The notes beneath the pieces are model-generated. The model searched no databases, was not told the DNA's origin, and saw only the letters and a program-made list of their open reading frames with translations. A program made the translations under genes and the position numbers. Of a DNA stretch of 64,000 bases, positions 8,581 to 52,625 are shown piece after piece (within the stretch, counting starts at the first letter, position 1; the number at the start of each line of letters is the position of its first letter). The DNA lies in the NCBI GenBank assembly GCA_902492505.1, contig CABULU010000001.1:71601-135600 (forward strand). Direction: 5' to 3'. This DNA is from an uncultured Eubacteriales bacterium. Lineage in GTDB: Bacteria > Bacillota > Clostridia > Oscillospirales > QAKW01.

Positions 8581-9360
8581 ATGAACACTAAATTAAAAGC
8601 CATAGTAGTACAGCCAAATATGGAAAACATGAGAGCCGTGTGTGAATTTTTGAAATCGCACGGTTACGAGATAAGTGCGACAACCCCGTCGGGCAGCGAA
8701 GCGGCCGCGCTTATTGTTAAATACGAGCCCCAGGTTATAATTTCAGACGCATATCTGCTGGATGTGGATGTGTGCGGTATGCTGGATATTTTGGAGCAGC
8801 GCGGATTTACCGGCAAGTCGGTTTTCGTGGTTGCGACCGGTATCAACAGCGCGTGCATCATTGAAAATGTTCTTAACCGCGGCGTTGATCTGTTCACGCT
8901 GATTCCGTTTAACAGCGATTATGCCGACAGGAAAATCCGTGATATTTACGCCAGAAAACAACAGTCAGCATTTGCAGGGCGTGCCGGCAACGCGCAGCTG
9001 GATGAGTTCGAGCTTCTGAATTACGTTTCAAGGCTGATGCACGAGGTCGGCGTGCCCGCATCAATCCGCGGCTACGACTATATACGCGAGTCCATAATGA
9101 TGGCGCTGGACGACCGGAATATTCTGAAATCCATAACAAAGGAGCTGTATCCCTCCATTGCAAAAAGCAACGATACGACATCCTCGCGTGTGGAGCGCGC
9201 AATCAGACACGCGGTTGAGGTTGCGTGGCAGCGCGGTGACGTTGAGGTTTTGAACAATATTTTCGGGTATACGGTTAAAAGCACAAAGGGCAAACCGACT
9301 AACGGCGAGTTTATTTCCATGCTGACAGAACGTGTTCGTCTTGATTTGAAAATTTCCTGA
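8581..9360 (+). CDS. spo0A: Spo0A-family sporulation transcription factor with degenerate (pseudo-)receiver domain
   Basis: The C-terminal domain carries Spo0A signatures: HEVGVPASIRGYDYIRESI, SRVERAIRHAVEVAW, KGKPTNGEFI. The N-terminal REC-like domain keeps Asp56 and Thr86, but has QP where the DD pocket should be and Ile108 where the conserved Lys should be. Confidence 0.8.
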   Translation: MNTKLKAIVVQPNMENMRAVCEFLKSHGYEISATTPSGSEAAALIVKYEPQVIISDAYLLDVDVCGMLDILEQRGFTGKSVFVVATGINSACIIENVLNRGVDLFTLIPFNSDYADRKIRDIYARKQQSAFAGRAGNAQLDEFELLNYVSRLMHEVGVPASIRGYDYIRESIMMALDDRNILKSITKELYPSIAKSNDTTSSRVERAIRHAVEVAWQRGDVEVLNNIFGYTVKSTKGKPTNGEFISMLTERVRLDLKIS

Positions 9361-11617: not shown

Positions 11618-11627
11618 GTATGCAACT

Positions 11628-11836
11628 GATAGAGGTGCGAAAATTAAGAGTACGCCGGGATTTTATGGGCAAGACATACGGCGGAAAAAAATAATGCCGA
11701 AGCCGCGGGTTTAACCTTTTCCGAAAATGTGCGGTTGGCGTAGGTCAGATATGTCCTGTGCTGTCAAGCATGTGGAGAGCTATCGCGTCTGTGGTATCAA
11801 GTCCGCGTCAGCTTTCTTCTGACTGCGGTTTTTTTG
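11628..11836 (+). promoter_or_regulatory. lysine riboswitch (L-box) with terminator expression platform
   Basis: L-box core strings appear in order: GATAGAGGTGCGAA, AGAGTA, GCCGAAG, CTGTCAAG, TGGAGAGCTATC. P1 is GATAG/CTATC. A hairpin ccgcgtcag...ctgac(t)gcgg plus T7 follows at 11803-11836. Confidence 0.85.
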
Positions 11837-11869
11837 TGCTCTGTCAAAAACAAAATAGGAGAAGGGGAA

Positions 11870-13612
11870 ATGAAAAACAAAAAGATATTTTTGTTTGTTG
11901 CCGTCATACTTTGCGTGACGATGCTGTTTTCCACCGCTTTTGCAGACGGGGAAGCAACCTCCGGCTCGACTGACTCTTCGGTATCGTCGGCAAACGACGG
12001 TGAAGCCGCACCGTCAGATGGGACAGATGCCGATCTGGTCGAGTCTGATACGGGTGAGACCGAAGAGGAGTATGAAAGTCCGTTTTATTCAACAATCTGG
12101 GCACTGCTTCCTCCGCTTATCGCGATAGCACTTGCGCTTATTACAAAAGAGGTATATTCCTCACTTTTTATCGGTATCCTTGTGGGCGGTCTTTTGTGGT
12201 CGGGCTTTGAATTTGAGGGTACCATGACCCATGTTCTGTCCGACGGTTTTGTCGGCTCGCTGTCCGATGAATATAATGTGGGTATTCTGCTGTTTCTTGT
12301 AATTTTGGGAGCGCTTGTTGTTATGATGAACAAGGCAGGAGGCTCTGCCGCGTTCGGCCGATGGGCGGCGGCGCATATAAAATCAAGAATCGGCGCACAG
12401 ATTGCAACTATCATTCTCGGTATTTTTATATTTATCGACGATTACTTTAACTGTCTGACTGTCGGGTCGGTTATGCGCCCTGTTACGGACAAGCAGAACG
12501 TGTCGCGCGCAAAGCTGGCGTATCTTATAGATTCGACTGCGGCACCAGTATGTATCATCGCTCCCGTATCGTCATGGGCGGCGGCAGTCGCCGCGTTTGC
12601 GGACGGATCGGGCATGAACGGCTTTGAGCTGTTTGTCCGCGCTATTCCCTATAACCTTTACGCGCTTTTGACAATAGGCATGATGTTCGCCATCACTGTA
12701 ATGAAGCTGGATTTCGGACCTATGAAGCGTCATGAGGAAAACGCTAAAAACGGCGATATATTCTCCAATGAACGTCTCAGTGAAATTGCCGATAATATGG
12801 AGGGCAACCCGCGCGGCAAAGTGTACGACCTCATTCTTCCCATCGCCGTGCTTATTGTTGCATGCGTATTCGGCATGATTTATTCGGGTGACTTTTTTAC
12901 AGCCGGAAAAGATGGCTATCATAACTTTGTAACTGCGTTTTCCAACAGTGATGCGTCGGTAGGTTTGGTTTACGGTTCGTTCGGCGCGTTGATATTTACA
13001 ATAATCTATCTTATGTGCAGGCGTGTGCTTTCGTTTAAAGAGTGTATGGAAGCCGTTCCCGAGGGCTTTAAGTCAATGGTTCCCGCCATCATGATTTTGA
13101 CCTGTGCATGGACGCTTAAGGCAATGACGGACAGCCTGGGCGCCGCTCCGTTCATTCACGATGTGGTTGAGAGCTCCGCCGAAGCGCTTCAGAGCTTTTT
13201 GCCCGCTATCATCTTTTTGATTGCGGTAGGTCTTTCCTTTGCTACAGGTACGTCGTGGGGTACTTTCGGCATCCTTATCCCGATAGTTATAAACGTTTTT
13301 GGCTTCGACAGCGGTGAGATTACCATTATCGCCATTTCCGCCTGTATGGCGGGCGCCGTCTGCGGCGACCACTGTTCGCCCATTTCCGACACTACAATTA
13401 TGGCATCGGCGGGCGCGCAGTGCAACCATTTGGTGCATGTGTCAACACAGCTACCCTATGCGCTTTTTGTTGCGGGGATTTCGTTTGTCGGCTATATTGT
13501 CGCCGGCTTTGTGAGAAATGTATACATATCCCTTATTGTATCCTTTGCGCTGTTGGTGCTGGCGCTTTTGGCTATACATGTTGTTACAAATCGCAAAAGA
13601 ACCGTAAATTGA
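11870..13612 (+). CDS. NhaC-family Na+/H+ antiporter-type transporter with acidic N-terminal extension
   Basis: Start moved to the ATG at 11870 (SD aggagaagggg), because the track's TTG start lies inside the riboswitch terminator. Multi-TM NhaC-like core follows a signal-like helix and a D/E/S/T-rich ~50-aa segment. Confidence 0.8.
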   Translation: MKNKKIFLFVAVILCVTMLFSTAFADGEATSGSTDSSVSSANDGEAAPSDGTDADLVESDTGETEEEYESPFYSTIWALLPPLIAIALALITKEVYSSLFIGILVGGLLWSGFEFEGTMTHVLSDGFVGSLSDEYNVGILLFLVILGALVVMMNKAGGSAAFGRWAAAHIKSRIGAQIATIILGIFIFIDDYFNCLTVGSVMRPVTDKQNVSRAKLAYLIDSTAAPVCIIAPVSSWAAAVAAFADGSGMNGFELFVRAIPYNLYALLTIGMMFAITVMKLDFGPMKRHEENAKNGDIFSNERLSEIADNMEGNPRGKVYDLILPIAVLIVACVFGMIYSGDFFTAGKDGYHNFVTAFSNSDASVGLVYGSFGALIFTIIYLMCRRVLSFKECMEAVPEGFKSMVPAIMILTCAWTLKAMTDSLGAAPFIHDVVESSAEALQSFLPAIIFLIAVGLSFATGTSWGTFGILIPIVINVFGFDSGEITIIAISACMAGAVCGDHCSPISDTTIMASAGAQCNHLVHVSTQLPYALFVAGISFVGYIVAGFVRNVYISLIVSFALLVLALLAIHVVTNRKRTVN

Positions 13613-15748: not shown

Positions 15749-16055
15749 ATCTGATTTCTTACCGTATCTTTTGGTCATGGCAGGCGTGACATATCTTTTG
15801 CGCATGGTGCCGCTTGTTTTTCTTCGCAGTAGGATAAAAAACTCCTTTGTAATTTCCTTTCTGCACTATATTCCTGTCGCCGTGCTCAGCGTCATGATTG
15901 TACCCGCCGTCTTTTACGCGTCGGAGAGCCTTGTATCGGCAGTTATCGGCTTTGCAGTCGCAGTCGTTTTTTCTTATTTGGAAAAAAGCCTTGTTCAGGT
16001 TGCCTGTCTGTCCTGCGCCGCAGTATTTTTGACTGAGCTTTTGTTAAAATTATAG
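15741..16055 (+). CDS. azlD: AzlD-family branched-chain amino acid transport protein
   Basis: 104-aa protein with four TM helices that overlaps the azlC stop. This is the typical azlCD arrangement. Confidence 0.8.
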   Translation: MLKSDFLPYLLVMAGVTYLLRMVPLVFLRSRIKNSFVISFLHYIPVAVLSVMIVPAVFYASESLVSAVIGFAVAVVFSYLEKSLVQVACLSCAAVFLTELLLKL

Positions 16056-17795
16056 TCTGTATTTTTCATTAAACTGCGCGTAAATACTTTTAAACTGGGC
16101 ATTTTCATGCTTTACGTCATGCAGATATCTGTGTGTCTCAAAGCTGCCGTGCGATAACTCTATTACTGCCGCAGAGATGTTTGAACAGTGATCGGATATT
16201 CGTTCAAGGTCGCCCAGCAGATTTGCAAAGGTCAGCCCCTGCTCTACGGTGCATGCGCCGCTTTGCAGACGTTTTACATGGTTCTTGTGCATTTTTGCCG
16301 TAAGCTTGTCAATGACCTGCTCGAGCGGCTCGGTATTTACGGCAAGCAGCGGGTCGTTATTTAAAAAAGCGGCCGATGTTATCTCGGTTATCTCTTTTAC
16401 CGCCGCGCTCAGCACGGATAGCTCTTTCATCGCCTCCTTTGAATATCCTTTTGTTTTTTCCAAAAGCTCGCCGGTATCAAGGCTTATATGCAGCGCGTGG
16501 TCGCACATGCGCTCAAGGTCGCTCACCGTGTACAGCATTCGCGAAACACTTGCGCTGTCATAATCTGACAGTGATTTTTCCGCAATGCGTACAAGGCTTG
16601 TCAGCAGCATATCCTCGTACATGTCGGAACGTTTTTCATTATCCGATACCATATCGGATACCTTTTTGTCATACTTTGATATCTGCTCCAGGGATAAAAG
16701 TACCGTATCTCGCGAAAGCTGCGCCATCTCTCTCGTTTTCGACATACACTCACTTACGGCAATGGACGGAGACATAAACAGCCGTTCGTCCAGCGCAGGT
16801 ATTCCGTCCTTTTTAGGTGCGCCGTCCTTTACAATCCTGCATATGAGCTTTTCGAGCTTTTTGGAAAACGGCAGAATGAGCAGCGTAGATAAAATATTAA
16901 ACGCTGTATGCGCCGCTGCAATTCCGACAGGATTTATTGCCTCTGAGAAAAATGAACCCCTGGCGGTTAACCGGAGTATTTCAAACAGCGTGAAAAACAC
17001 CGCTGTTCCTATTACGTTTACGGATGTGTGTGCAGCTGCTACGCGCTTTGCGTTTTTGCTGCCGCCAAGACAGGATATCAGCGCTGTGATGCAGGTGCCT
17101 ATGTTTTGCCCCATGATTATCGGCAAAGCGGTAGACCATGTTACGGCGCCGGTCAGCGAAAACGCCTGCAAAATGCCTACCGATGCGGATGACGACTGAA
17201 TAAGCGCGGTAATAACGATACCTGCGATGAGGCTTAAAAACGGATTTTCAAACTTTACCATGAGCGAGGCAAATTCCGGCGTGTCTGCGAGCGGGCTTAC
17301 AGCGCTTGTCATAAACTTCATGCCATATATGAGTACCGCAAACCCGATGAGCACCCGTCCTGCGTCCCGCCGCCTGCTCTTTTTGGCGGACATTATTAAA
17401 ATCACGCCTAAAAGCGCCAAAAACGGCGTGAAATTTTCCGGCTTGAGCATAGACACCAACATGTTGCTGCTTTCAATTCCCGCAAGGCTCAAAATCCATG
17501 CGGTAAAGGTGGTGCCTATGTTTGCACCGAAAATAATGTACAGAGTTCCCGTAAATTCCATTATTCCGGAATTTACAAGCCCCACAAGCATAACGGACGT
17601 TGCCGACGACGACTGTATGACCATTGTTATGACCAAGCCAAGAATCAGGCTGAGCGCCGGCTTTTTCTGCGCGCGCTTGAGCACCCTCTCCAGTCTGCCG
17701 CCGGCGGTCTTTTCAAGGTTTTCAGACAGTGTCAGCATACCGAACAGGAAAAACGAGATGCCGCATATAAATTGTATAATGCTGTAAACGTTCAT
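16050..17795 (-). CDS. Na/Pi-cotransporter family protein with C-terminal PhoU-like domains
   Basis: Two QSSSA(T/S) Na_Pi_cotrans repeats followed by a helical PhoU-type C-terminal half. SD aggaggtg. Confidence 0.85.
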   Translation of the reverse strand: MNVYSIIQFICGISFFLFGMLTLSENLEKTAGGRLERVLKRAQKKPALSLILGLVITMVIQSSSATSVMLVGLVNSGIMEFTGTLYIIFGANIGTTFTAWILSLAGIESSNMLVSMLKPENFTPFLALLGVILIMSAKKSRRRDAGRVLIGFAVLIYGMKFMTSAVSPLADTPEFASLMVKFENPFLSLIAGIVITALIQSSSASVGILQAFSLTGAVTWSTALPIIMGQNIGTCITALISCLGGSKNAKRVAAAHTSVNVIGTAVFFTLFEILRLTARGSFFSEAINPVGIAAAHTAFNILSTLLILPFSKKLEKLICRIVKDGAPKKDGIPALDERLFMSPSIAVSECMSKTREMAQLSRDTVLLSLEQISKYDKKVSDMVSDNEKRSDMYEDMLLTSLVRIAEKSLSDYDSASVSRMLYTVSDLERMCDHALHISLDTGELLEKTKGYSKEAMKELSVLSAAVKEITEITSAAFLNNDPLLAVNTEPLEQVIDKLTAKMHKNHVKRLQSGACTVEQGLTFANLLGDLERISDHCSNISAAVIELSHGSFETHRYLHDVKHENAQFKSIYAQFNEKYRL

Positions 17796-17861
17796 TTTTC
17801 ACCTCCTAAAACAGTATGTTTTACTTCATAAGTTAGTATCGACTGTTGTTAAAAAAATATT

Positions 17862-18126
17862 TGTAAAAATTAAGAAAGCCGCACGAAAAATATCCGCGCG
17901 GCTTTTGTGTGGAAAGTTATATTAGAAAAAATATTGCTGTATTGCTCTGCCTGCAATTTTGTCCGAAGGTCTCCCCACGGGTTTGTATGCAGACTTACGA
18001 CGGCAATGCCTGCCGCCGGGAGGGCTCCCGCCGAAAAACTCGATAATCCCTCCGCCTCGTTAACCAAGCTTTAAATTTTGGTCTGGCGCTTTTGAAATTC
18101 CCTTGAAAATATCTGCCCACCTTTCT
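17862..18126 (-). ncRNA. unclassified structured 5' leader (candidate riboswitch/attenuator) of the Na/Pi-PhoU transporter
   Basis: Bounded by a consensus promoter (18133-18161) and an 11-bp-stem terminator (17876-17904 plus U-tract). The GC-rich core has four local helices at 18062-18083, 18019-18053, 18001-18015 and 17949-17994. There is no SD-led ORF, and no good promoter between the terminator and the transporter ATG. Confidence 0.5.
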
Positions 18127-18132
18127 GCTTTC

Positions 18133-18161
18133 AGTATAGCATAAAGACGGGCAGTTGTCAA
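18133..18161 (-). promoter_or_regulatory. sigma-A promoter of the structured leader
   Basis: Minus strand: TTGACA (18161-18156), 17-nt spacer, TATACT (18138-18133). Confidence 0.65.
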
Positions 18162-43589: not shown

Positions 43590-46500
43590 TTATTTTACAA
43601 AACTCTGATGAAATCTTGTAATTATAGTTGCAACCTGTGCGCGCGTAGCATAATCCCGCGGTGCAAAGTTGTGTTCGTCCATGCCGTCTATTATTCCGGC
43701 TCTCTGGCAGATTTCAACCGCCTCTTTGGCGTAGTTTTGAATTCTGCTTTCGTCATTGAAGGTTTTCTTTTCAACCCGTTCATCAAGCACAATACCCGCA
43801 AATTTTGCATACCTTACAATCATCGTGCAAATCTGCTGTCTCTGTACATTATCATTGGGTGAAAATTTATCGCTGTCCGTGCCGTCAACAATTCCGTTTT
43901 CAAAAGCCCATTTAACAGCCGGTGTATACCACTTACCGGACGGTACATCGCTAAATGCCGTTTCAACTTCGCGGTTTTCCGTGTCTACGCCGCTCATGTT
44001 CGCAAGAATTTGGACAAACATGGCTCTTGTGAGCGTCATTGCCGGTGCAAATACCGTTTCATCAGTTCCGTTCATCAGCTCATATGTTGCTACATAATCA
44101 ATGTAGCTCTTGTACCATCTGCCGCTTTCTACGTCGCTGAACTGCTTTGAACTGTCTGTAAGCTCCTTGTCGGGTTCGGGAGTAGGTTCGGGCTCGGGTT
44201 CGGGTTCGGGCTCAGGTTCGGGTTCAGGTGTTGGGTCGAGCTTTGTGCCCTGCGCGGTTCTGACTTCTTCCTCACCGCAGTATTCACATTTCCTTGTCTC
44301 TGTGCCGTCCGCTTCCACAGTGGCGTCGTTGTTATAAACAAATTCGCCCCATTTATGTGCGTCCGGGTTTACGGGAATAGCCTCGACTTTTGTATGGGAA
44401 CTGTCGTTTTTGCATGTAAAGAGCTTTTCGCCCTGTGCCGAGCATGTGGGTTCTTTTGTAATTACTCCGTTGTCCCATGCGTGTTCATCGGCGTCAATAG
44501 GAATTGTCTCAGTCCTTGTATGAGAACTGTCATTACGGCAGGTAAACAACAGCTCACCCTCTTGCGAACAGGTCGGCGTTTTTGTTACCGTTCCGTTATC
44601 CCAATTGTGACCGAGCGCAGAATCCTCCTTAATTCTTGTGTCCGTATACGTACAGCCGTATGTGGTACAGTGTGCAGTTTCGGTTCCGTTATTCTCGCAG
44701 TCCGCGTCATTGTTGGAAACATATTCACCGAAACTGTGTTTTTTCAGTGCATTTTCCGCATTTGTCAGCATATTTACGGCGGCTGATACATCGGCGGCGC
44801 TTTCAAACAATTCTGCCGCCGCTTCAGCGTTTGATATCGCTGTCAGCAGTGCGTCAAATGTGGGAGTGCAGTATAAGTTACTGTCGTTGCTTATCTGTTT
44901 TGTGCGTTTGAGTACGGTGTTGAATTCACTCTGGTCTATAAGTCCGTTTACTGCACTTTCAAGCTCTGTGCATGCCTGCATTATTTGTCTTGCATTCGGG
45001 GAAATTATTGCTTTGACCTCGTCGATTTTGTCCGTCAGCACTTTGTATGATGCTGCTGTGTACCTGTGGTCGCTGTTTTTTATCTTCTGTGCATCCGCTA
45101 TTGCACTGAGCATCCTTTCGGTGTCAGGCGTCAGATTATCCATTGCTTCAACCAACTCCTGCATCGCCTCGGTAATGTTTTCCGCGCGCAGAGTAACTGC
45201 TGATTTCAGGCTGTAGGTACTTAAATTGTTTTCGCCGTAAAACGTTTTTGCGGTTTCGTACTTTTCAAGGAAATTCTCCGCCGAAACCTCGGTGTAATAT
45301 TCAAACTCCTCGCTGTTTTTTATAATTTCGGCATTTTTTAGGATTTGACCGTAATTCTCCGCTTCCAGAGTGATTTTATCTATTGCATCCTGCAGCGCGT
45401 TGTATGCGGCATTGATTTCCGTCAGTGTGCTTTGCGTTCTTTCTGCGGTTTTTACGGCTGAATTAATTGCCGCGTTCAGTTCCGTTATCTGATGCTGAGA
45501 GCAGCTTGTTGTATCGATTTCACTCGCACTTTCAGTAAGACTGTCAAGCTCGAGCAGCTTTTGAGCGATATCCGCCGCAAGGTTTATTTTCTGAGCTGCG
45601 TTGTCTGCCTGTGTCTTGTCTGCTTTATCGCTGTGAATTATGTATTCACCGTCTTTTGCAGCGAGCCTGATACGTTCTAAAGCGTACTCGCGGTAACCGC
45701 TTGCGCTTTCAAAACCTGCCGCGCGCTCAAGCGCAGTATAAAGCGCACTCATATCGGCGGAGTTTATGTCAATTTCAAGAACCCACTGTTCTGAAGAGGT
45801 GTTGTTTGAAATGCTGACGGTGTATACGGCGTCGTTGACCGCCGGGATTTCGGTTATATCCGAGACTCCGCTGACAGTGATCGAGTTACCGCCGCTTTGA
45901 ATAATATAGTCATTGAGCGAGAAGGTGCTCTTTCCGGCGCCGAGCGTCAGCTTCAGTGTTTTGTCGGAGCTGTTTACCTTGATTTTATCTGAAAACTTAT
46001 AGCTTGTCAGTCCGTCGGAACGTATTGTAAGCGCATAATTTTGATATTGCCAGTTGTTGACGGTGTTGCTGCCGCCCAGTATTTTCCTACCGGCGCCTGT
46101 AATAAAGCTGTCTGAATATACATTGTAGTAGTTCCCGGACAAATCAAGCACGCTGTTGTTTGACGGGTTATTAATTACGCCTGCGACGCCTACAAATCTG
46201 TTGCCCGAAATATTCATTTTCAGCATTTCGTTTGGCTGGGCCGTGTCGTTGAAGGCAATAAATGACGCAGTTTTTTCGGTGCTGCTCAAAAACAGATTGT
46301 TTTGTATGCTTATATCGCTGTAAGCGTAGGGAGACACGGTAAATCCCGCGGCTTTGGTCTGGAAGTTGTAAAAGCAGTTGCCTGTAATGTTTAGCTGCGC
46401 TGTTTGGCTCTGACCGTTGTTTGCATGGTTTCTGCCTTCGAAATACAGATAATTTCCGGCTGATGTATCAATACCGTTTCTCAGATTACAGTTTTTAACC

Positions 46501-49500
46501 GACAGTCTGCCGTCTCTTTGTTTTGAACTCATTTTCCACCAGCCGAGCAGGCTTACCTGTGATTTTTCAAGGTCACAGTATAGACCGTCTATCGTAAAAT
46601 CACTCGGTAGATATTCGTTAAGCAGTCTGTTTCTGCCTTCGTAAATTTCGGTGCTGCACATTACCTTTTCAACACGAACGTTTTTCATAACACCTATATC
46701 AGTGTTGTTTCCACCCTGCTCGTTGTTTAAGTTGGAAAATGTAAGTGTGTAAACGGTAGAATAATATCCGTAAGGGCTGGCAGCGAGAGTTTCCTCATGC
46801 TCGATAACGATGTTTTCGAGCGTTATTTTTGTCTGTTTGCTGCTGGCGCCGCGCAGAGTATCGTAAAATCGTCCGCGCAGAGTAATGCCTTTTATCTCGA
46901 TATTTGTGCCGGATGCGTCGGGAGATATGGATATCGAATCTATTTCGCTCTGACCGTATGAGCCCCAGTCGTCGCTTAGCGTCCAGTCGGAGGAGATGTC
47001 ATCCGATACAGGAGTATTGGGATTTACATCATAATTTATGCCGTATACGGAGGTATCCGCGGGGATTATAAGCTCGCCGTCAATCTTTGTATCGGGAATT
47101 ATAATCTGAATATGTCCGTTTGAGCGCACTGCGTTTATTTCATCGATATCCGAGAATGCGTTTTCACCGACGGTGAATCTGTAATACCTGCCTTTCCAGC
47201 TGCGTATTATAATGTCCCTTTGGCTGTAAAGGGCGATATCCGGGCTGAGAAGATACGCGGTGCTTTGAATTTGTCCGAGCGGGTCTGAAAAGCTTTCTTT
47301 AAAGTAGCCGATTTCATTTGCCTCCAGCGTGACGCTGTAAGTACGCTGTGCACCGTTTTTGGAAAGCTTCAGAGTGTATTCGGTATTTCCCGCCATTACA
47401 TCTTTATAGCTGATGCTTGTTACGGGTACGCTGCTGTCAAAGGGATACAGTGCCTTGTCAACGCCGCTTCCCTTTGTAATAAATTCGAGTACACCCGTTA
47501 TATTTTCCGTCAGCATTACATTCAGCTTTTGTTCTTCAGGGAGAATCTGAAGCATTGTTTTTCCGCCGCCAAACAGAGCATTTGTGACGTCAAAGTCGGT
47601 GCTGAGAGTATTTAAAGAAAAGTCACAGTAATACGGCAGTGTGACCGCACCTATCGGGTCTGTATTTCCGTCGGGACCTGAAACGTATTCGGGGGCTTTT
47701 CCGGTTTTATCAGATACTGAAGTGAAAGTGTCTGACAGGTAATTGCCTGAAAAATCAAAGCTCAGCTTTGCAAGATTTTCGTCCGTAACTTGGTTCATAT
47801 TGGGCAGATAGGAGGTTATGCCTATAAAGCGGTTGCGGTGGACGTTCATTGTCATCGGATTGGTAAAAAACGCGCTGTTTCCTTCGATAGCAGTGTCCAC
47901 CTCGTATCCGCCCTGCTGACTGAACAGATTATCCTCTATTGTCACGTTAATATCGGGAAGCTGTGCCGATACTGAAATAATGCCCCACTGCGCACTTGCA
48001 CAGTTTAAGAACGCATTGTTGTAAATTGAAAGTTTACCGCTTTGATAATCACCCGATGTTAGCGGTGTTGTGCGTATACGCACGGCACGTGTAAGAGCGC
48101 CTCCGGTAAAGCAGCTGTTTTTAACTGTATAGTCCATGTCGTGGCGCATGTTCATGTTTGCGTCAACGTCGAATATGCTTACGCTCATGCTGGAATTTTC
48201 TATATATGCACCGTCAAACACAAGTGTATCAAGATATTTTCTTATGAGCGCAGAGCCGTTGAAGCCGGTCATGCGCAGATTTTTAACAGTCAGTGAATTG
48301 TAATTGAAGGTGGTGTCCTGCGCCGTGTAAAGATGTCCCGTCTGGTTTACGGATTTTATATTCTGCAGGTACATGTTGTCTGAACGCTTGCCGGTCACGT
48401 TCAGTGATATTGAGTTATCGCTGTCTGTTCTTGAGCCCACGTCAACATCGTCTACTCCGAGTTTTCCGCTGCCCGTAAGCTTTATACCGTCTATCAGAAT
48501 AAAGAACTCCATGCGCTCGTCAGCGGCATTTTCCGCGTCCTGAACATTTTTTTCAAGCGATAGGTCATCGTTGCCCGAAACTCTTGTCGAGCGATAAATT
48601 CTGTCGGTGAATACCGTTTCGTGCTCGCTGTCCCATGCCGTATTTTCGGCTATGCTGCCTCCCGGCAGAAGCTCTGAGACGTCAGCGGACGGGTCGTTTG
48701 GATTTATGCCGGCATTTGTTCCGAGTATCATTGCGCGGTAGTAAACCTTGATGGCGCCGTAGCTGCCCTCGGTAAATATAAATACCGGTGTATCATGCAG
48801 AATGTCGGGGTTGGTGCCAAGCCAGTGCGCATATGCCGAATCAAAGTTCGCAAAATGGCGGTTGCTGTCAAACGGCTGGGTATACTGCTCTCCCCGGAAG
48901 GTAAAGCTTATATTTCCGGATGATGTATTTGCCCAATCTGCGTCTATAATATATGCGGTGTTGGGGTAGCTGTCATAATCGGGAGTAAGACCGGCGGACG
49001 CAGGACGAACAACGCGCAGTGTGTAGTCGATACTCTGCGTGCCGTCCGTAACACGTATGATGTAATTCTTTTCGGTGCCGCTTTCAATCCCATCTGCCCT
49101 TGTTACGGATTGACCGTTGTACATGAGCTGTGAGGACGTACCATCAGCTGTTTTTACGAATATATCCGCGCCCGATGAAGTTTCCGGCAGGGTCAGTGTG
49201 TAGCCGCCCGTATATTCGTTAAAGGCAATGACTCCTCTGTCCGCAATTATATCGTGTATGGAAAGTAACGCCGGCACATTACGGTGGATTTTGAGAGTAA
49301 ACGTGGTATAGACGTAAGGATTGTCGGGAACGCTGATTGTAACTTTTACGGTTGTAATAAGATTGTTAACCGAAATATCCGACATATCAGCAGTTTCGCC
49401 GTCGAGCAGGTATACACCGGATATAATCAGGTCGGACAGATTATCTATATATCCGTCGGTAAAGTCGATTTTTTGTCTGTCGCTTTCAACAAACAGCTCC

Positions 49501-52500
49501 AGTACCGAGTTTATGCTGTCAAATATGAGCCCGTCTTTTTCGGAGAACAGCACCTCTACCGGATTTTTGATTTTTGTCAGCGCATAGTCTTCGTAATATG
49601 CGCTGCAAAGAGCAAAGCCCGTGGGGCAAATGCCGTCGTCAGCTATAATAAAATCTTCACTGTACGGAGCAAGGTAATTTTCGGAAACGTCAATAAAAGT
49701 ATTTGTACTGTCGTAGTTTGCAGCGGCAAAATAGCTTGAAAATCCTACTATACGATTGTTTTTAAAAGAGAAGCCGCTGCCGGTGTATTCGGTGTTTTTG
49801 TAATTAATTTCAAAAAGTACCGGCGACTCTGTTTTGTGTATAAAGGTATTGTCCTCGATAGTAAGACTTGTATATGCCTGAGGAGACAGAGAGATAAGCG
49901 CGCCGATCTGATTACCGATGCTTTCAAACACACTGTTTTTTACGGTGTAGGCTATGGCGTTAGCACCGACTGTTACGCCGTCGCGTGAATCTGTTAAAAA
50001 CGCGCCGCTTGCAGAGCTTACGTTAAACCGGCTGTCGGAAATTAAAATTTCGCAGTCACCAGAATACAGGCTGCTGTTCCAGTGTGCGTCAAAAAGCCGC
50101 GTCAGAGCGCCGTTACTGTAGCTGTTGGTAATTGAAAGCTTTGAGGGAAGCGCGCCACCGAACAGTATTTTATTTTGGCTTTCGTCCGACGGGATATTTT
50201 TAATGTAAACTCCGTCAAGAATATATTCATTGTGCAGGCTTTGTACGGACGGGCATCCGACATTAAACTGTCTGTATCCGTTTTGTGCATCACCTTGTGC
50301 GTTTATCAGCGAGTTTTTAAAAGTGATGCTGCCGTTTTGAGTTCTTGTAAGATCAGAAACTGCGCCGCAAAGCTCGACACCGGAAATTGTGACGTTTGCA
50401 CAGGACAGAGTAATTCCGGAAACCTTTGAGGTTTTCCCGCTGCTCCATGCAAGTCCGGCTCCCCACTCGTCCGTACCGCTGCCGGCAGCGGCGGCGCTTT
50501 TATAATTTTCACCGTAAATCTGACAAGGAGCGGTGATGTTAAGCTCACCGTAGCTGCCGTAAGGCAGAATTATCTGAGGTATACCGCTGCCGGCGGCAGC
50601 AAAGATTTCTTCAAGCGTTGCAAATGCGTTCTGTCCGACGGTAAACGAATACGTTCTACCGTCAAAGCTCTGTCTGAAAACTGCGCCGTTTGACATGTCC
50701 GCTGTCTCAGGAGATAAAAGATACGCCGTATTTTGTATAGTACCCTCTGGGTCAGACCAACCGCTTGCAAAGTCATCAACAGCATTTTCACCGTAAAGCT
50801 TTACAGTAATCACTTTTGAGGCGGAGCCCTTAACGGCTTTTGCATAGACCGTTGTGACAGCGTTTTGAGCCGGTGCTGAAATTGATGTTATGCGGGAAGC
50901 ACAGCTGCTGTCAGAAAAAAATTCTGCGGTTACTGCACTGTCTCGAAAATACAGCGCTGGGTTTTGGATATTTGTGCCACAGGTGTATGACGCCGTGATA
51001 AGCGAATTATCGTTGTCAATGCTTACATAGTCCGCATCCTCATAAAAGCTGACGCCGGATACGTCCAGCATGCCGTCATAGACGGTCATGGCAAAGTCTT
51101 CATAATATACAAGGTTGTCAATGTCAATAGGGTCGGAATAGGGCGTTGTACTAAAGTACTGGCTTGTAGTTCCCAATACGTCGGCATGACTGTTATATGA
51201 CGGCGCAAAATAGTTATAGTTAAAGTCCGCTGTTATGTATGTTACATTGTCGGGCATGTTGGGGAAAAGGCTTGTGTAGCCAATAACCCTGTTGCGGTTG
51301 ACATACATGGCGTATGCGCCCTGCTGATAGCTTGTGTTGCCGTTCAGAAAAGTGTTTTTCGCTGTGGTATTATAGCTTTGGTCGGCAATAAAGATATTGT
51401 TTTGTATGTTTATCTCGTAGCTTGAGTCCTTGTGAGATTTTGTGCTGTAAAATGTAAGCGCACCATAGCTTCCGCTGTTATGCTCGTAAAACAGGTTGCC
51501 GTTTAGCGTGACCTTGCTTTTATGCTCTGAATCTTTATATCTGAAATTAAGATTGTAGCCAGCCGAGCATTTGTACATATACGAATTCTGCATAAGAAAA
51601 GAAAATTCATACGGAGCGATAAGCTGGCTTTGTGAAATGGAGCCGGAGCTGTTGGCAAAATATACCCCGTCCAGTCGAACGTGCGAGGCGTTTGCACCGA
51701 AAAAGCTTTTTACCTTGGTGCCGTCACTGCGTATGTTTTTAAAATCGTAGCAGTTTACGTTGTTTGCCGACTGAGAGTCATCTATATAAAAAGAGGCGTT
51801 TGTAGTGACAATGTCGTTGTTTTGCACAGTCACTGACATTGTACGTTTTTTTGCACCTGTTGTGTCGGCAAGCGTTAGAAAATTAGACGCAGCCGAAAAT
51901 TTGACTCCGTCGATTATAAGCGAAAATTCGGTTTCGTTTGAGGCGGCCTGCTCGTATTTTTGATTTGTCAGAGAGCTGTTTACCTGTGTCGAACGGGAAA
52001 AACCGTTTGAAATCACGGTTTCGCTGCCACGTAGGGTATTTTTATTCCAGCCCGTTTTGGGATTAGCCGTTGACAGATCGATGTCGGCATTTGGCGAAAT
52101 GCCTGCGTTTGCGCCTAAAATCACCGCGTTATAGCGTACGGTGAGCCTTGTTTCGGTATAGGTTCCCGGAGCAAGTATAAAAACAGGAACCTCCTTTGCC
52201 ATCTGGCTGTTTATGCTGCCGTCAGACTCCGTGTAAAGTGATTCAAAATAGGAGTATGCCGCTGAAAAGCTTGAAAAATGGCGCTGAGGATTGTAGGTCT
52301 CATTATACGTATTACCGCGGAATTCAAAGGAAAGACTTGTGTTCGAGGTTAAGTTAGTCCATTGTGGATTAACAATATACGCTTCTTGCAGAAGAGACGA
52401 GTAGTCAAGAACAGCACCTATGCTTTCCTGATCTGTCTGTGCACTTTTAACGCCGGAACTTTCGGCGAATGCGAAAAGTGAAAGACCCTGTACGGGACAC

Positions 52501-52562
52501 AGCGCCGTAAAAATCGTGAGTGCCAAAGTGAAAGCTAAAGCTCTTACTCTCTTTTTAAACAT
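43590..52562 (-). CDS. giant (about 2990 aa) SLH-anchored cell-surface protein with four parallel beta-helix-type modules
   Basis: Signal peptide MFKKRVRALAFTLALTIFTALCPVQGLSLFAFA. Repeated beta-helix-like motifs (IQNNIFI, IEDNTFI, NRVIGYTS, DFNYNYFAP...). Then a helical FIVAR-like region, Cys-rich H.WDNG..TK.PTC repeats, a (PE)n linker and three C-terminal SLH domains. Start moved to the ATG at 52562 (SD aaggag), because the track's start is the -35 box. Confidence 0.85.
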   Translation of the reverse strand: MFKKRVRALAFTLALTIFTALCPVQGLSLFAFAESSGVKSAQTDQESIGAVLDYSSLLQEAYIVNPQWTNLTSNTSLSFEFRGNTYNETYNPQRHFSSFSAAYSYFESLYTESDGSINSQMAKEVPVFILAPGTYTETRLTVRYNAVILGANAGISPNADIDLSTANPKTGWNKNTLRGSETVISNGFSRSTQVNSSLTNQKYEQAASNETEFSLIIDGVKFSAASNFLTLADTTGAKKRTMSVTVQNNDIVTTNASFYIDDSQSANNVNCYDFKNIRSDGTKVKSFFGANASHVRLDGVYFANSSGSISQSQLIAPYEFSFLMQNSYMYKCSAGYNLNFRYKDSEHKSKVTLNGNLFYEHNSGSYGALTFYSTKSHKDSSYEINIQNNIFIADQSYNTTAKNTFLNGNTSYQQGAYAMYVNRNRVIGYTSLFPNMPDNVTYITADFNYNYFAPSYNSHADVLGTTSQYFSTTPYSDPIDIDNLVYYEDFAMTVYDGMLDVSGVSFYEDADYVSIDNDNSLITASYTCGTNIQNPALYFRDSAVTAEFFSDSSCASRITSISAPAQNAVTTVYAKAVKGSASKVITVKLYGENAVDDFASGWSDPEGTIQNTAYLLSPETADMSNGAVFRQSFDGRTYSFTVGQNAFATLEEIFAAAGSGIPQIILPYGSYGELNITAPCQIYGENYKSAAAAGSGTDEWGAGLAWSSGKTSKVSGITLSCANVTISGVELCGAVSDLTRTQNGSITFKNSLINAQGDAQNGYRQFNVGCPSVQSLHNEYILDGVYIKNIPSDESQNKILFGGALPSKLSITNSYSNGALTRLFDAHWNSSLYSGDCEILISDSRFNVSSASGAFLTDSRDGVTVGANAIAYTVKNSVFESIGNQIGALISLSPQAYTSLTIEDNTFIHKTESPVLFEINYKNTEYTGSGFSFKNNRIVGFSSYFAAANYDSTNTFIDVSENYLAPYSEDFIIADDGICPTGFALCSAYYEDYALTKIKNPVEVLFSEKDGLIFDSINSVLELFVESDRQKIDFTDGYIDNLSDLIISGVYLLDGETADMSDISVNNLITTVKVTISVPDNPYVYTTFTLKIHRNVPALLSIHDIIADRGVIAFNEYTGGYTLTLPETSSGADIFVKTADGTSSQLMYNGQSVTRADGIESGTEKNYIIRVTDGTQSIDYTLRVVRPASAGLTPDYDSYPNTAYIIDADWANTSSGNISFTFRGEQYTQPFDSNRHFANFDSAYAHWLGTNPDILHDTPVFIFTEGSYGAIKVYYRAMILGTNAGINPNDPSADVSELLPGGSIAENTAWDSEHETVFTDRIYRSTRVSGNDDLSLEKNVQDAENAADERMEFFILIDGIKLTGSGKLGVDDVDVGSRTDSDNSISLNVTGKRSDNMYLQNIKSVNQTGHLYTAQDTTFNYNSLTVKNLRMTGFNGSALIRKYLDTLVFDGAYIENSSMSVSIFDVDANMNMRHDMDYTVKNSCFTGGALTRAVRIRTTPLTSGDYQSGKLSIYNNAFLNCASAQWGIISVSAQLPDINVTIEDNLFSQQGGYEVDTAIEGNSAFFTNPMTMNVHRNRFIGITSYLPNMNQVTDENLAKLSFDFSGNYLSDTFTSVSDKTGKAPEYVSGPDGNTDPIGAVTLPYYCDFSLNTLSTDFDVTNALFGGGKTMLQILPEEQKLNVMLTENITGVLEFITKGSGVDKALYPFDSSVPVTSISYKDVMAGNTEYTLKLSKNGAQRTYSVTLEANEIGYFKESFSDPLGQIQSTAYLLSPDIALYSQRDIIIRSWKGRYYRFTVGENAFSDIDEINAVRSNGHIQIIIPDTKIDGELIIPADTSVYGINYDVNPNTPVSDDISSDWTLSDDWGSYGQSEIDSISISPDASGTNIEIKGITLRGRFYDTLRGASSKQTKITLENIVIEHEETLAASPYGYYSTVYTLTFSNLNNEQGGNNTDIGVMKNVRVEKVMCSTEIYEGRNRLLNEYLPSDFTIDGLYCDLEKSQVSLLGWWKMSSKQRDGRLSVKNCNLRNGIDTSAGNYLYFEGRNHANNGQSQTAQLNITGNCFYNFQTKAAGFTVSPYAYSDISIQNNLFLSSTEKTASFIAFNDTAQPNEMLKMNISGNRFVGVAGVINNPSNNSVLDLSGNYYNVYSDSFITGAGRKILGGSNTVNNWQYQNYALTIRSDGLTSYKFSDKIKVNSSDKTLKLTLGAGKSTFSLNDYIIQSGGNSITVSGVSDITEIPAVNDAVYTVSISNNTSSEQWVLEIDINSADMSALYTALERAAGFESASGYREYALERIRLAAKDGEYIIHSDKADKTQADNAAQKINLAADIAQKLLELDSLTESASEIDTTSCSQHQITELNAAINSAVKTAERTQSTLTEINAAYNALQDAIDKITLEAENYGQILKNAEIIKNSEEFEYYTEVSAENFLEKYETAKTFYGENNLSTYSLKSAVTLRAENITEAMQELVEAMDNLTPDTERMLSAIADAQKIKNSDHRYTAASYKVLTDKIDEVKAIISPNARQIMQACTELESAVNGLIDQSEFNTVLKRTKQISNDSNLYCTPTFDALLTAISNAEAAAELFESAADVSAAVNMLTNAENALKKHSFGEYVSNNDADCENNGTETAHCTTYGCTYTDTRIKEDSALGHNWDNGTVTKTPTCSQEGELLFTCRNDSSHTRTETIPIDADEHAWDNGVITKEPTCSAQGEKLFTCKNDSSHTKVEAIPVNPDAHKWGEFVYNNDATVEADGTETRKCEYCGEEEVRTAQGTKLDPTPEPEPEPEPEPEPEPTPEPDKELTDSSKQFSDVESGRWYKSYIDYVATYELMNGTDETVFAPAMTLTRAMFVQILANMSGVDTENREVETAFSDVPSGKWYTPAVKWAFENGIVDGTDSDKFSPNDNVQRQQICTMIVRYAKFAGIVLDERVEKKTFNDESRIQNYAKEAVEICQRAGIIDGMDEHNFAPRDYATRAQVATIITRFHQSFVK
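44172..44237 (-). repeat. hexanucleotide tandem repeat encoding the (Pro-Glu)n linker
   Basis: ggttcg/ggctcg units, about 10 copies, encoding TPEPEPEPEPEPEPEPTPEP. Confidence 0.85.
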
Positions 52563-52577
52563 AATCTGCCGCTCCTT

Positions 52578-52607
52578 AGGCTTATAATTATACATAATTA
52601 TAAGCCT
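52578..52607. promoter_or_regulatory. perfect 30-bp palindrome (14-bp arms) overlapping the -10 of the giant-gene promoter; candidate operator
   Basis: aggcttataattat-ac-ataattataagcct. The right arm contains the -10 and the left arm abuts the SD. Confidence 0.55.
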
Positions 52608-52625
52608 AAAATGAACGTTTGTCAA
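52597..52625 (-). promoter_or_regulatory. consensus sigma-A promoter of the giant surface-protein gene
   Basis: Minus strand: TTGACA (52625-52620), 17-nt spacer, TATAAT (52602-52597). Confidence 0.7.

Follow-up and report, generated by a model that had tools for sequence, protein, structure and literature searches.

A glmS ribozyme predicted to form a free-standing transcription unit upstream of a Na+/Pi cotransporter-PhoU gene in uncultured Clostridia

Introduction

The glmS ribozyme is the model metabolite-activated ribozyme. It is regarded as an antibacterial target on the assumption that its action is confined to glmS in cis. In the 2011 survey by McCown et al., all but two of 463 representatives reportedly resided in glmS mRNAs. 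Reviews describe the class as repressing the glmS genes that lie downstream (PMC2258182; PMC5473149). Here, we describe an RNA element on the minus strand of a 64,000-nt stretch of DNA from an uncultured Eubacteriales bacterium (this whole stretch is referred to as the window), located upstream of a gene for a Na+/phosphate (Pi) cotransporter-PhoU fusion protein. The element is like the described members of the class (B. subtilis, B. anthracis, T. tengcongensis) in sequence and secondary structure across the whole family model. It differs from them in that it does not lie in a glmS mRNA and has its own terminator, which begins 34 nt past the ribozyme end; it also carries an invariant G-free tail and has an A for G at B. 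subtilis position 36. Judged from its sequence, this is a known RNA family in a rare, conserved and free-standing configuration. The literature that was searched contained no case in which a glmS ribozyme precedes a phosphate transporter gene or works in trans.

SreA and SreB of Listeria are trans-acting small RNAs (sRNAs) that derive from riboswitches. Other sRNAs that stem from riboswitches or attenuators are RZ, derived from a SAM-II riboswitch in S. meliloti (PMC9373788), rnTrpL (PMC7968998) and the SAM-I riboswitch/sRNA of D. vulgaris (bioRxiv 10.1101/803072). In such systems, as is predicted for the window RNA, a ligand-sensing 5' domain and the terminator behind it give rise to a short discrete RNA, which could pair with another mRNA through a single-stranded stretch. 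Their short RNA, however, arises as a side product, and the riboswitch it comes from continues to regulate the gene downstream. The window RNA is also unlike them in having a self-cleaving type of sensor, a constitutive-looking terminator and a cognate glmS that lies elsewhere, and its target is hypothetical. A further parallel is the GlmY/GlmZ-RapZ circuit of Enterobacteria (PMC4152352), in which GlmZ activates glmS and glucosamine-6-phosphate (GlcN6P) is sensed via the protein RapZ. If the window RNA acted on glmS in trans, it would follow the same logic of a GlcN6P-dependent sRNA that pairs with glmS, and would be the direct-sensing counterpart of that protein-dependent circuit. In contrast to GlmZ, it would sense GlcN6P itself and is predicted to repress, and the two RNAs have no sequence relationship.

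A ribozyme copy that selection maintains as an independent RNA gene would show that the sensor is usable elsewhere, for GlcN6P-dependent control of another gene or of glmS in trans. In the latter case, nature would offer an example of a ribozyme-gated sRNA, whereas such designs have so far come mainly from synthetic biology. In any event, a gene that adjoins a glmS ribozyme match cannot be assumed to be its target.

Identity of the RNA

The entire window was scanned against Rfam. A full-length match to the glmS ribozyme family RF00234 was found at 18101-17939 of the minus strand, with a score of 87.9 bits (gathering threshold of 37 bits), E = 6e-21, and model positions 1-167 of 167 covered.

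17939..18101, minus strand: glmS ribozyme RF00234, full length, with helices P1, P2, P2a, P3, P4 and P4.1

A first-pass annotation of this DNA had called the element unclassified after a comparison by eye with a list of RNA families from which glmS was missing, and the match overturns that description by the very outcome that the annotation had named as decisive. The four helices it had listed do exist and are those of the glmS ribozyme, namely P1 (ACCAA/UUGGU), P2 (GGAGGG/CCCUCC), P3 (CGGCGGCA/UGCCGUCG) and P4 (GUCUGCA/UGCAGGC), to which P4.1 (CCGUGGG-GAGA-CCUUCGG) can be added. A 65-aa open reading frame (ORF) with a TTG start had been suspected to be spurious, rightly so, since it lies inside the ribozyme, where relatives carry 1- and 2-nt indels.

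The Rfam consensus aAaA/GCGCC falls so that the predicted scissile bond is A18090/G18089. With the pairing scheme of the glmS ribozyme taken from PMC7125110 and PMC11602151, the sequence and the Rfam alignment also reveal the pseudoknot strands, GCGCC with GGCG of UCGGCGG and ACG with CG of AUCGA. The double-pseudoknot core and the peripheral domain are intact; the P2-P2.1-P2.2 core, the GNRA loop L4, the P1 receptor G for L4 and the A-rich IL4 (the internal loop of P4) are all present. The catalytic G is found in AACGAGG, and A37 to G42 (B. subtilis numbering) all match; the active-site guanine is G42 in B. subtilis and G40 in T. tengcongensis. The core departs from the consensus just once, with A in place of the G36 of B. 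subtilis (AACGAGG, not GACGAGG). This variant is compatible with activity, because in B. subtilis the G36A mutant keeps 64.5% product in a k-seq experiment at 180 s, compared with about 86% for the wild type and about 5% for G42 mutants (PMC11602151). The predicted transcript (18126-17862) folds at -85.3 kcal/mol, which is lower than 200 of 200 shuffles (z = -3.7).

By alignment to the family, the element is a genuine glmS ribozyme. Since the RNA is assigned through a full-length RF00234 match, the expected ligand is GlcN6P and not the phosphate-related compound or ion that had been suggested. The ribozyme is not in a glmS 5' untranslated region (UTR), as the downstream gene encodes a protein with Na_Pi_cotrans (3.8e-58) and PhoU (1.2e-20) domains in Pfam, in line with the first-pass annotation.

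16050..17795, minus strand: Na+/Pi cotransporter-PhoU fusion gene, 581 aa, with Shine-Dalgarno sequence AGGAGG at 17807-17802

Conservation and distribution among relatives

The unit is present in seven lineages (the window, L087, L090, L093, L094, L101 and L103) of a small clade of uncultured Clostridia, in which the transporters are 74-100% identical and the yhaN-like proteins 48-98% identical, and it always follows the yhaO/yhaN-like operon. In the first five clade members, the gene order is DUF554, metallophosphatase, AAA/SMC-like, gap, Na/Pi-PhoU and convergent azlDC, except that DUF554 is absent in L094 and the downstream side is unsequenced in L093. The gap before the transporter measures 357-400 nt in these five and always holds a full-length glmS ribozyme. 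L101 and L103 have the ribozyme after the same upstream gene; the gap of L101 is longer, and the assembly breaks within it.

At the fourfold-degenerate sites of the transporter, the window is 29-40% identical to L090, L093 and L094, and the identity across deep lineage pairs is 30-42%; synonymous sites between the lineages are saturated. Despite this, the -35 box, part of the promoter spacer, the leader block, the ribozyme core, GCAAUACAG and the 21-nt tail are invariant or nearly so, and sequence changes cluster in loops and compensatory pairs. The cleavage-site motif A/GCGCC and the pseudoknot strands are unchanged in all clade lineages. Standard pairs fill 98.1% of the pair cells when nine distinct sequences are compared, whereas registers slid by 1-3 columns pair only 31-48%. 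Nine pairs have changed on both sides, a number reached by none of 500 shuffles. The compensatory double changes occur in P1, P2, P4 and P4.1 and are concentrated in the peripheral P4 and P4.1, with L103 supplying them even in the core helices P1 and P2; P2a and P3 show no covariation within the clade. Because the core is invariant and nine pairs are compensatory although the synonymous sites are saturated, the pattern of change indicates that the ribozyme is under purifying selection and is not a decaying relic.

It could be argued that the element is a functionless evolutionary remnant left behind when glmS was deleted or moved. The glmS ribozyme is normally found in glmS leaders, as it is in Subdoligranulum, Ruthenibacterium and Pygmaiobacter, and the 64-kb window has no glmS gene (no protein starting with MCGI and no GlmS in two Pfam rounds). 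However, the homologues score 84-89 Rfam bits and carry compensatory changes against a background of saturated synonymous sites, and the promoter, tail and terminator are conserved as well. The outgroups (39-40% yhaN identity) keep the ProRS-(DUF554)-yhaO-yhaN block, DUF554 being absent in L105; after yhaN, both L104 and L105 have an unrelated convergent gene and no ribozyme, glmS or transporter at this position. A former glmS at this locus was considered and rejected, as nothing in these outgroups suggests one. A relic is therefore highly improbable and close to refuted. The clade's own glmS was not found: it is absent from the window, a metagenome scan with the clade core pattern gave orphan copies only, and no GlmS protein cluster matched known clade contigs.

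Outside the clade, 80 transporter-orthologue loci from GTDB species representatives (45-52% identity) were collected as a distant set. A glmS ribozyme was absent from all 80 by nhmmer, by regular expression and by a covariance model built from the clade (at most 12 bits), and none of the 80 loci shares neighboring genes with the window. This null result is meaningful since the clade-built model does detect the diverged cis glmS ribozyme of Subdoligranulum (28 bits, E = 2e-9; 55.7 bits with Rfam). Transporters of this kind are not, as a rule, accompanied by the ribozyme.

The transcription unit

The ribozyme lies within a series of conserved elements on the same strand.

18133..18161, minus strand: sigma-A-type promoter of the ribozyme RNA (TTGACA, 17-nt spacer, extended -10 TGcTATACT)
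18113..18154, minus strand: hairpin spanning the ribozyme promoter, predicted terminator/insulator of the upstream yhaO/yhaN-like operon
18090..18126, minus strand: 5' leader of about 37 nt, predicted from the Rfam alignment to be freed by self-cleavage
17903..17936, minus strand: G-free linker and tail of 34 nt, predicted to be single-stranded (alignments of clade lineages; L101)
17865..17905, minus strand: intrinsic terminator of the ribozyme RNA, 13-bp stem AAAGCCGCGCGG...CGUGCGGCUUU followed by CUUAAUUUUU

In a consensus scan the promoter gave 11 of 12 matches plus the TG extension, as the first-pass annotation had it in sequence and position. It had also been placed correctly just after the stop of the yhaN-like gene; it starts 10 nt past the TAA stop (18174-18172) of this 707-aa AAA/SMC-like gene. 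The predicted transcription start is near 18126. Equivalent promoters score 10-11 of 12 in L087, L090, L093 and L094, and that of L103 reads TTGACA-17-TGgTATAAT.

The left arm of the hairpin that spans the promoter, CUGCCCGUCUUU (18154-18143), sits within the -35/-10 spacer, and its right arm, AAAGGUGGGCAG (18124-18113), in the 5' leader, with the -10 box carried in the loop and a U-rich run (18112-18105) after it. This is a compact overlap of terminator and promoter, in which transcription would start close to where the 3' arm has its base. All seven lineages have the hairpin, with folding energies between -16 and -23 kcal/mol. In L090 a G-C pair is replaced by A-U, G.U intermediates are seen in the window, L093 and L094, and in L103 both arms are altered together as a complete swap (CCCGCAUAACC / GGUUGGUGGG). 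The G.U intermediates point to a structure at the RNA level, and the hairpin is predicted to be the terminator of the upstream yhaO/yhaN-like operon, which would insulate the ribozyme unit. The GAAAGGUGGG(C/U)AG block of the leader is unchanged in six lineages; the conservation of the leader is explained here by its block AAAGGUGGGCAG being the right arm of the upstream hairpin.

On the other side, the strong intrinsic terminator that had been proposed is confirmed, with its stem at 17905-17875 and a hairpin energy of -21.2 kcal/mol. It is kept in all six lineages sequenced there (-17 to -21 kcal/mol), where the letters of the stem have changed and the structure is preserved. The U tract comprises 7-8 U in L090 and L093, and 6 U in L094. 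With a promoter and two terminators flanking a complete glmS ribozyme, the arrangement is, as predicted from these elements, that of an independent transcription unit. To that extent, it had been right to describe a structured regulatory RNA that has a promoter and a terminator of its own and precedes the Na/Pi-PhoU gene; its response to a ligand is predicted from the family.

The attenuator architecture that had been read into this arrangement is unlikely. The glmS ribozyme is pre-organized and undergoes no conformational switch (PMC2258182; PMC11602151), and for this reason the terminator cannot be ligand-controlled; furthermore, it is kept by compensatory change in every lineage. No alternative antiterminator pairing or competing helix was found in the folds, where the G-free linker is unpaired, and the terminator is within the minimum-free-energy fold of all five lineages folded. 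The terminator looks constitutive. These observations also bear on whether the RNA belongs to a new riboswitch class, one that senses phosphate or an ion and controls the terminator. All that would favor such a class is that a Na/Pi-PhoU gene lies downstream and that there is a terminator. Against it stand a full-length, high-scoring glmS match with ligand-pocket and catalytic nucleotides intact, the missing antiterminator and the G-free linker. A new class has next to no likelihood and is regarded as refuted.

Proposed function

Because the constitutive terminator is strongly conserved, the short RNA itself is taken as the product of the unit. Our preferred reading, to which we give a probability of roughly 0.6, is that of a free-standing glmS ribozyme RNA of about 265 nt that is functional in its own right and whose output is most likely exerted in trans via its tail. 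Transcription would start at the strong sigma-A promoter (18161-18133) and end at the terminator (17905-17865). By the mechanism of the family, binding of GlcN6P is predicted to induce self-cleavage at A18090/G18089, which would free the leader of about 37 nt; the 3' fragment that remains would be about 228 nt long and carry a 5'-OH. In Bacillus, such 5'-OH ends are degraded by RNase J1 (Collins et al. 2007, as cited in PMC5473149). The GlcN6P level would then be reflected in how much of the 3' fragment, with its G-free 21-nt tail, is present or in what state it is. Transcripts that read through the terminator would additionally render the Na/Pi-PhoU mRNA sensitive to GlcN6P.

Complementarity of the tail to the start of glmS

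The last 21 nt before the terminator, AAUAUAACUUUCCACACAAAA (17923-17903), are invariant in the clade except for one A-to-G change in L094, and they are a candidate seed. The reverse complement of the tail is UUUUGUGUGGAAAGUUAUAUU, and glmS genes start with AUG-UGU-GGA-A (Met-Cys-Gly-Ile). The idea of a glmS seed was stated before any glmS sequence was examined. Duplex energies between the tail and the starts of four Oscillospirales glmS genes were compared with those of 1,184 control start regions (mean of -6.9 kcal/mol, standard deviation of 2.3).

L057, Ruminococcus metagenome-assembled genome: -15.5 kcal/mol, 3 of 1,184 controls as good
L106, Subdoligranulum variabile: -15.5 kcal/mol, 3 of 1,184 controls as good
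L107, Ruthenibacterium: -15.5 kcal/mol, 3 of 1,184 controls as good
L108, Pygmaiobacter: -11.5 kcal/mol, 45 of 1,184 controls as good

L057, L106 and L107 (three of the four genes) have in common UGUGUGGAA, a 9-bp stretch of perfect complementarity that covers the start codon, while perfect complements of at least 9 nt occur in only 5 of the 1,184 controls. The glmS of Pygmaiobacter has GGU where the others have GGA. Tyr-Ile codons (UAUAUU in Ruthenibacterium) could offer further pairing to AAUAUA, the 5' half of the tail. The complementarity to the glmS start is suggestive, with p at roughly 0.003 if no correction is made for having tried three or four targets. Neither the window nor the first 100 fetched loci contain other copies or complements of the tail. 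Pairing of the tail with the translation start of the transporter was considered as well and was rejected, as it reached -5.6 kcal/mol and ranked 55th of 108.

In three of the four loci, the first eight glmS codons are strikingly AT-rich and have nearly the same nucleotide sequence (ATGTGTGGAATTGTTGGATATAT). Subdoligranulum is one of them although it is GC-rich, and L108 differs from ATGTGTGGAATTGTTGGATATAT at several third positions. Such a 5' end suggests a constraint at the nucleotide level.

A more specific version of the trans output holds that the RNA is a GlcN6P sensor acting on glmS, in other words a ribozyme fused to an antisense seed. This version is put forward tentatively and is rather unlikely to be correct as it stands. 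The partner of the tail, 5'-AAUAUAACUUUCCACACAAAA-3', would be U-GUG-UGG-AA at the beginning of the glmS mRNA, in a stretch that encodes Met-Cys-Gly, the Cys being the catalytic N-terminal residue, and the Gly-Tyr-Ile codons might be bound by a second block. In the clade, glmS would have lost, or would never have had, a cis ribozyme, as in Ruminococcus L057; ribozyme-less glmS genes do exist in this order, since the L057 gene lacks one. Self-cleavage would set the activity of the sRNA, either by triggering RNase J decay or by releasing the leader, whose GUGGG overlaps the same tail residues, so that the seed is unmasked. The unmasking version is the one that would give negative feedback.

If the RNA does act on glmS in trans, a clade glmS without a cis ribozyme is expected, with first eight codons that read AUGUGUGGAA...GGUUAUAUU or similar, and its start would co-vary with the tail, for example opposite the A-to-G change of L094, which faces the U of AUG. 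The glmS-start motif by which tail complementarity could be judged in other ribozymes that lack an adjoining glmS is AUGUGUGG.

The minimum-free-energy folds of all five lineages contain a closing helix, named "P0", between leader GUGGGcAG and tail CUuUCCAC. This candidate was not upheld: shuffled tails were as good at a fraction of 0.03-0.27, and both strands are invariant, which makes covariation unassessable. The leader-tail pairing that unmasking needs is not statistically supported.

In Subdoligranulum variabile L106 (OY725846.1), the sequence ACACAUAAA (354-372), directly after the cis ribozyme, matches the start region of the gene itself, UUUAUGUGU (690-712). The two are perfect complements about 330 nt apart; for a 25-nt window the energy is -17.7 kcal/mol, a value that 3 of 1,184 controls also reach. 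The idea that cis glmS ribozymes are generally followed by such an "anti-start" element was rejected, as the L106 match is not significant over the whole UTR (0.065) and nothing comparable was found in the cis leaders of Ruthenibacterium or Pygmaiobacter. Just 3' of the B. subtilis ribozyme lies GAUCUUCCAAAAAACAU, which loosely resembles CUUUCCACACAAAA of the clade and may do so by coincidence; in the k-seq data, mutations in this B. subtilis stretch had no effect on cleavage in vitro.

The transporter gene and possible regulation in cis

The alternative output is in cis. The transporter mRNA would come mainly from read-through from the ribozyme promoter, cleavage in response to GlcN6P would expose a 5'-OH and lead to RNase J decay, and phosphate transport would be repressed at high GlcN6P. 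The evidence for and against it comes largely from the region between the terminator and the transporter. The first-pass annotation had seen no promoter there, and a consensus scan of the window indeed found no sigma-70-like site of at least 9 of 12 between the terminator and the ATG at 17795. The same region does hold a conserved bipartite element:

17835..17862, minus strand: bipartite promoter-like element of the transporter, AAATATTT (17862-17855), 14 nt, GATACT (17840-17835)

Its consensus is [AT]AATA[AT][AT]T, 14 nt, [GA]ATA[CA]T. The internal spacing is fixed in six of six lineages, which differ in how far the element lies from the terminator and from the ATG. It was found in only 1 of 78 distant orthologues, although the motif was derived from the same sequences, so this low background frequency is only illustrative. 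L093 and L095 read GATAAT in the element, and L095 also has TATAAT. Because its spacing is fixed amid a variable spacer, the element is probably the transporter's own promoter. Read-through would then not be obligatory, and the dependence of the transporter on read-through that had been deduced probably does not hold. AAATATTT-N14-GATACT does not fit sigma-A. As a guess, an alternative sigma factor may read it; the element presumably resembles a sporulation sigma-E-type promoter (ATATT ... CATACA-like). Spo0A is encoded in the window at 8581-9360.

Further observations argue against control in cis. The terminator hairpin (-17 to -21 kcal/mol) and the U tract, 7-8 U long in L090 and L093, have been kept by compensatory change. 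The post-terminator spacer diverges fast, and tolerates a 45-nt insertion in L090 and, in L101/L095, an array of tandem repeats whose unit is about 44 nt long. The 80 distant orthologues have no ribozyme. In addition, no metabolic connection of Na/Pi transport with GlcN6P is known to us. Regulation of the transporter in cis is on these grounds rather unlikely as the primary function, although it is the main alternative and retains some weight.

This weight comes from several points that count against the preferred reading of a free-standing functional RNA. The transporter is downstream of the RNA in the same orientation in all six lineages in which the downstream gene is known. Such constant adjacency has the look of a cis regulator, yet the whole neighborhood is syntenic, so it is not independent evidence. 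The absence of a sigma-70-like site of at least 9 of 12 after the terminator extends from the window to L087 and L090, and in all three substantial read-through is possible; the contig of L101 stops before the transporter-promoter region. The U tract of the terminator is interrupted (UUUCUUAAUU...) in the window, L087 and L101. With a ribozyme promoter of such strength, read-through of as little as 10-20% could be relevant. In the preferred reading, self-cleavage, how efficiently the RNA terminates and where its 5' end lies are predictions. As for the output in trans, complementarity to a target is seen only in the glmS genes of other organisms, and the four glmS tests are not independent, as these heterologous genes share the motif through coding constraint. 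Pairing over the start codon would mean repression, and plain decay after cleavage would then produce positive feedback unless cleavage activates the RNA, which is a problem for this output.

Other observations in the neighborhood

The tandem repeat in the terminator-transporter spacer, CGGGGTCCCYGCGGAACATGYGTTTTGTGGGGTGYGATT (about 44 nt), was seen at L101 6678-6737 and L095 1-30, both from sample SRR30592937. It is restricted to this lineage, and the assembly breaks inside it. Each CGGGGTCCCYGCGGAACATGYGTTTTGTGGGGTGYGATT unit can fold into a CCCCGC/GUGGGG hairpin, and it may be a small mobile or REP-like element.

Elsewhere in the window, a lysine riboswitch (RF00168, 54.6 bits) is found at 11622-11790 on the plus strand, before a gene of the Na_H_antiporter family (NhaC-like) at 11834-13612 on the same strand. 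This pair is kept in L087, L090 and L091 (75-80 bits) and looks like an ordinary lysine-controlled transporter arrangement. A giant ORF of 3,011 aa at 43590-52625 on the minus strand may encode an S-layer-associated surface protein; its syntenic counterpart in L090 has a weak SLH-domain match.

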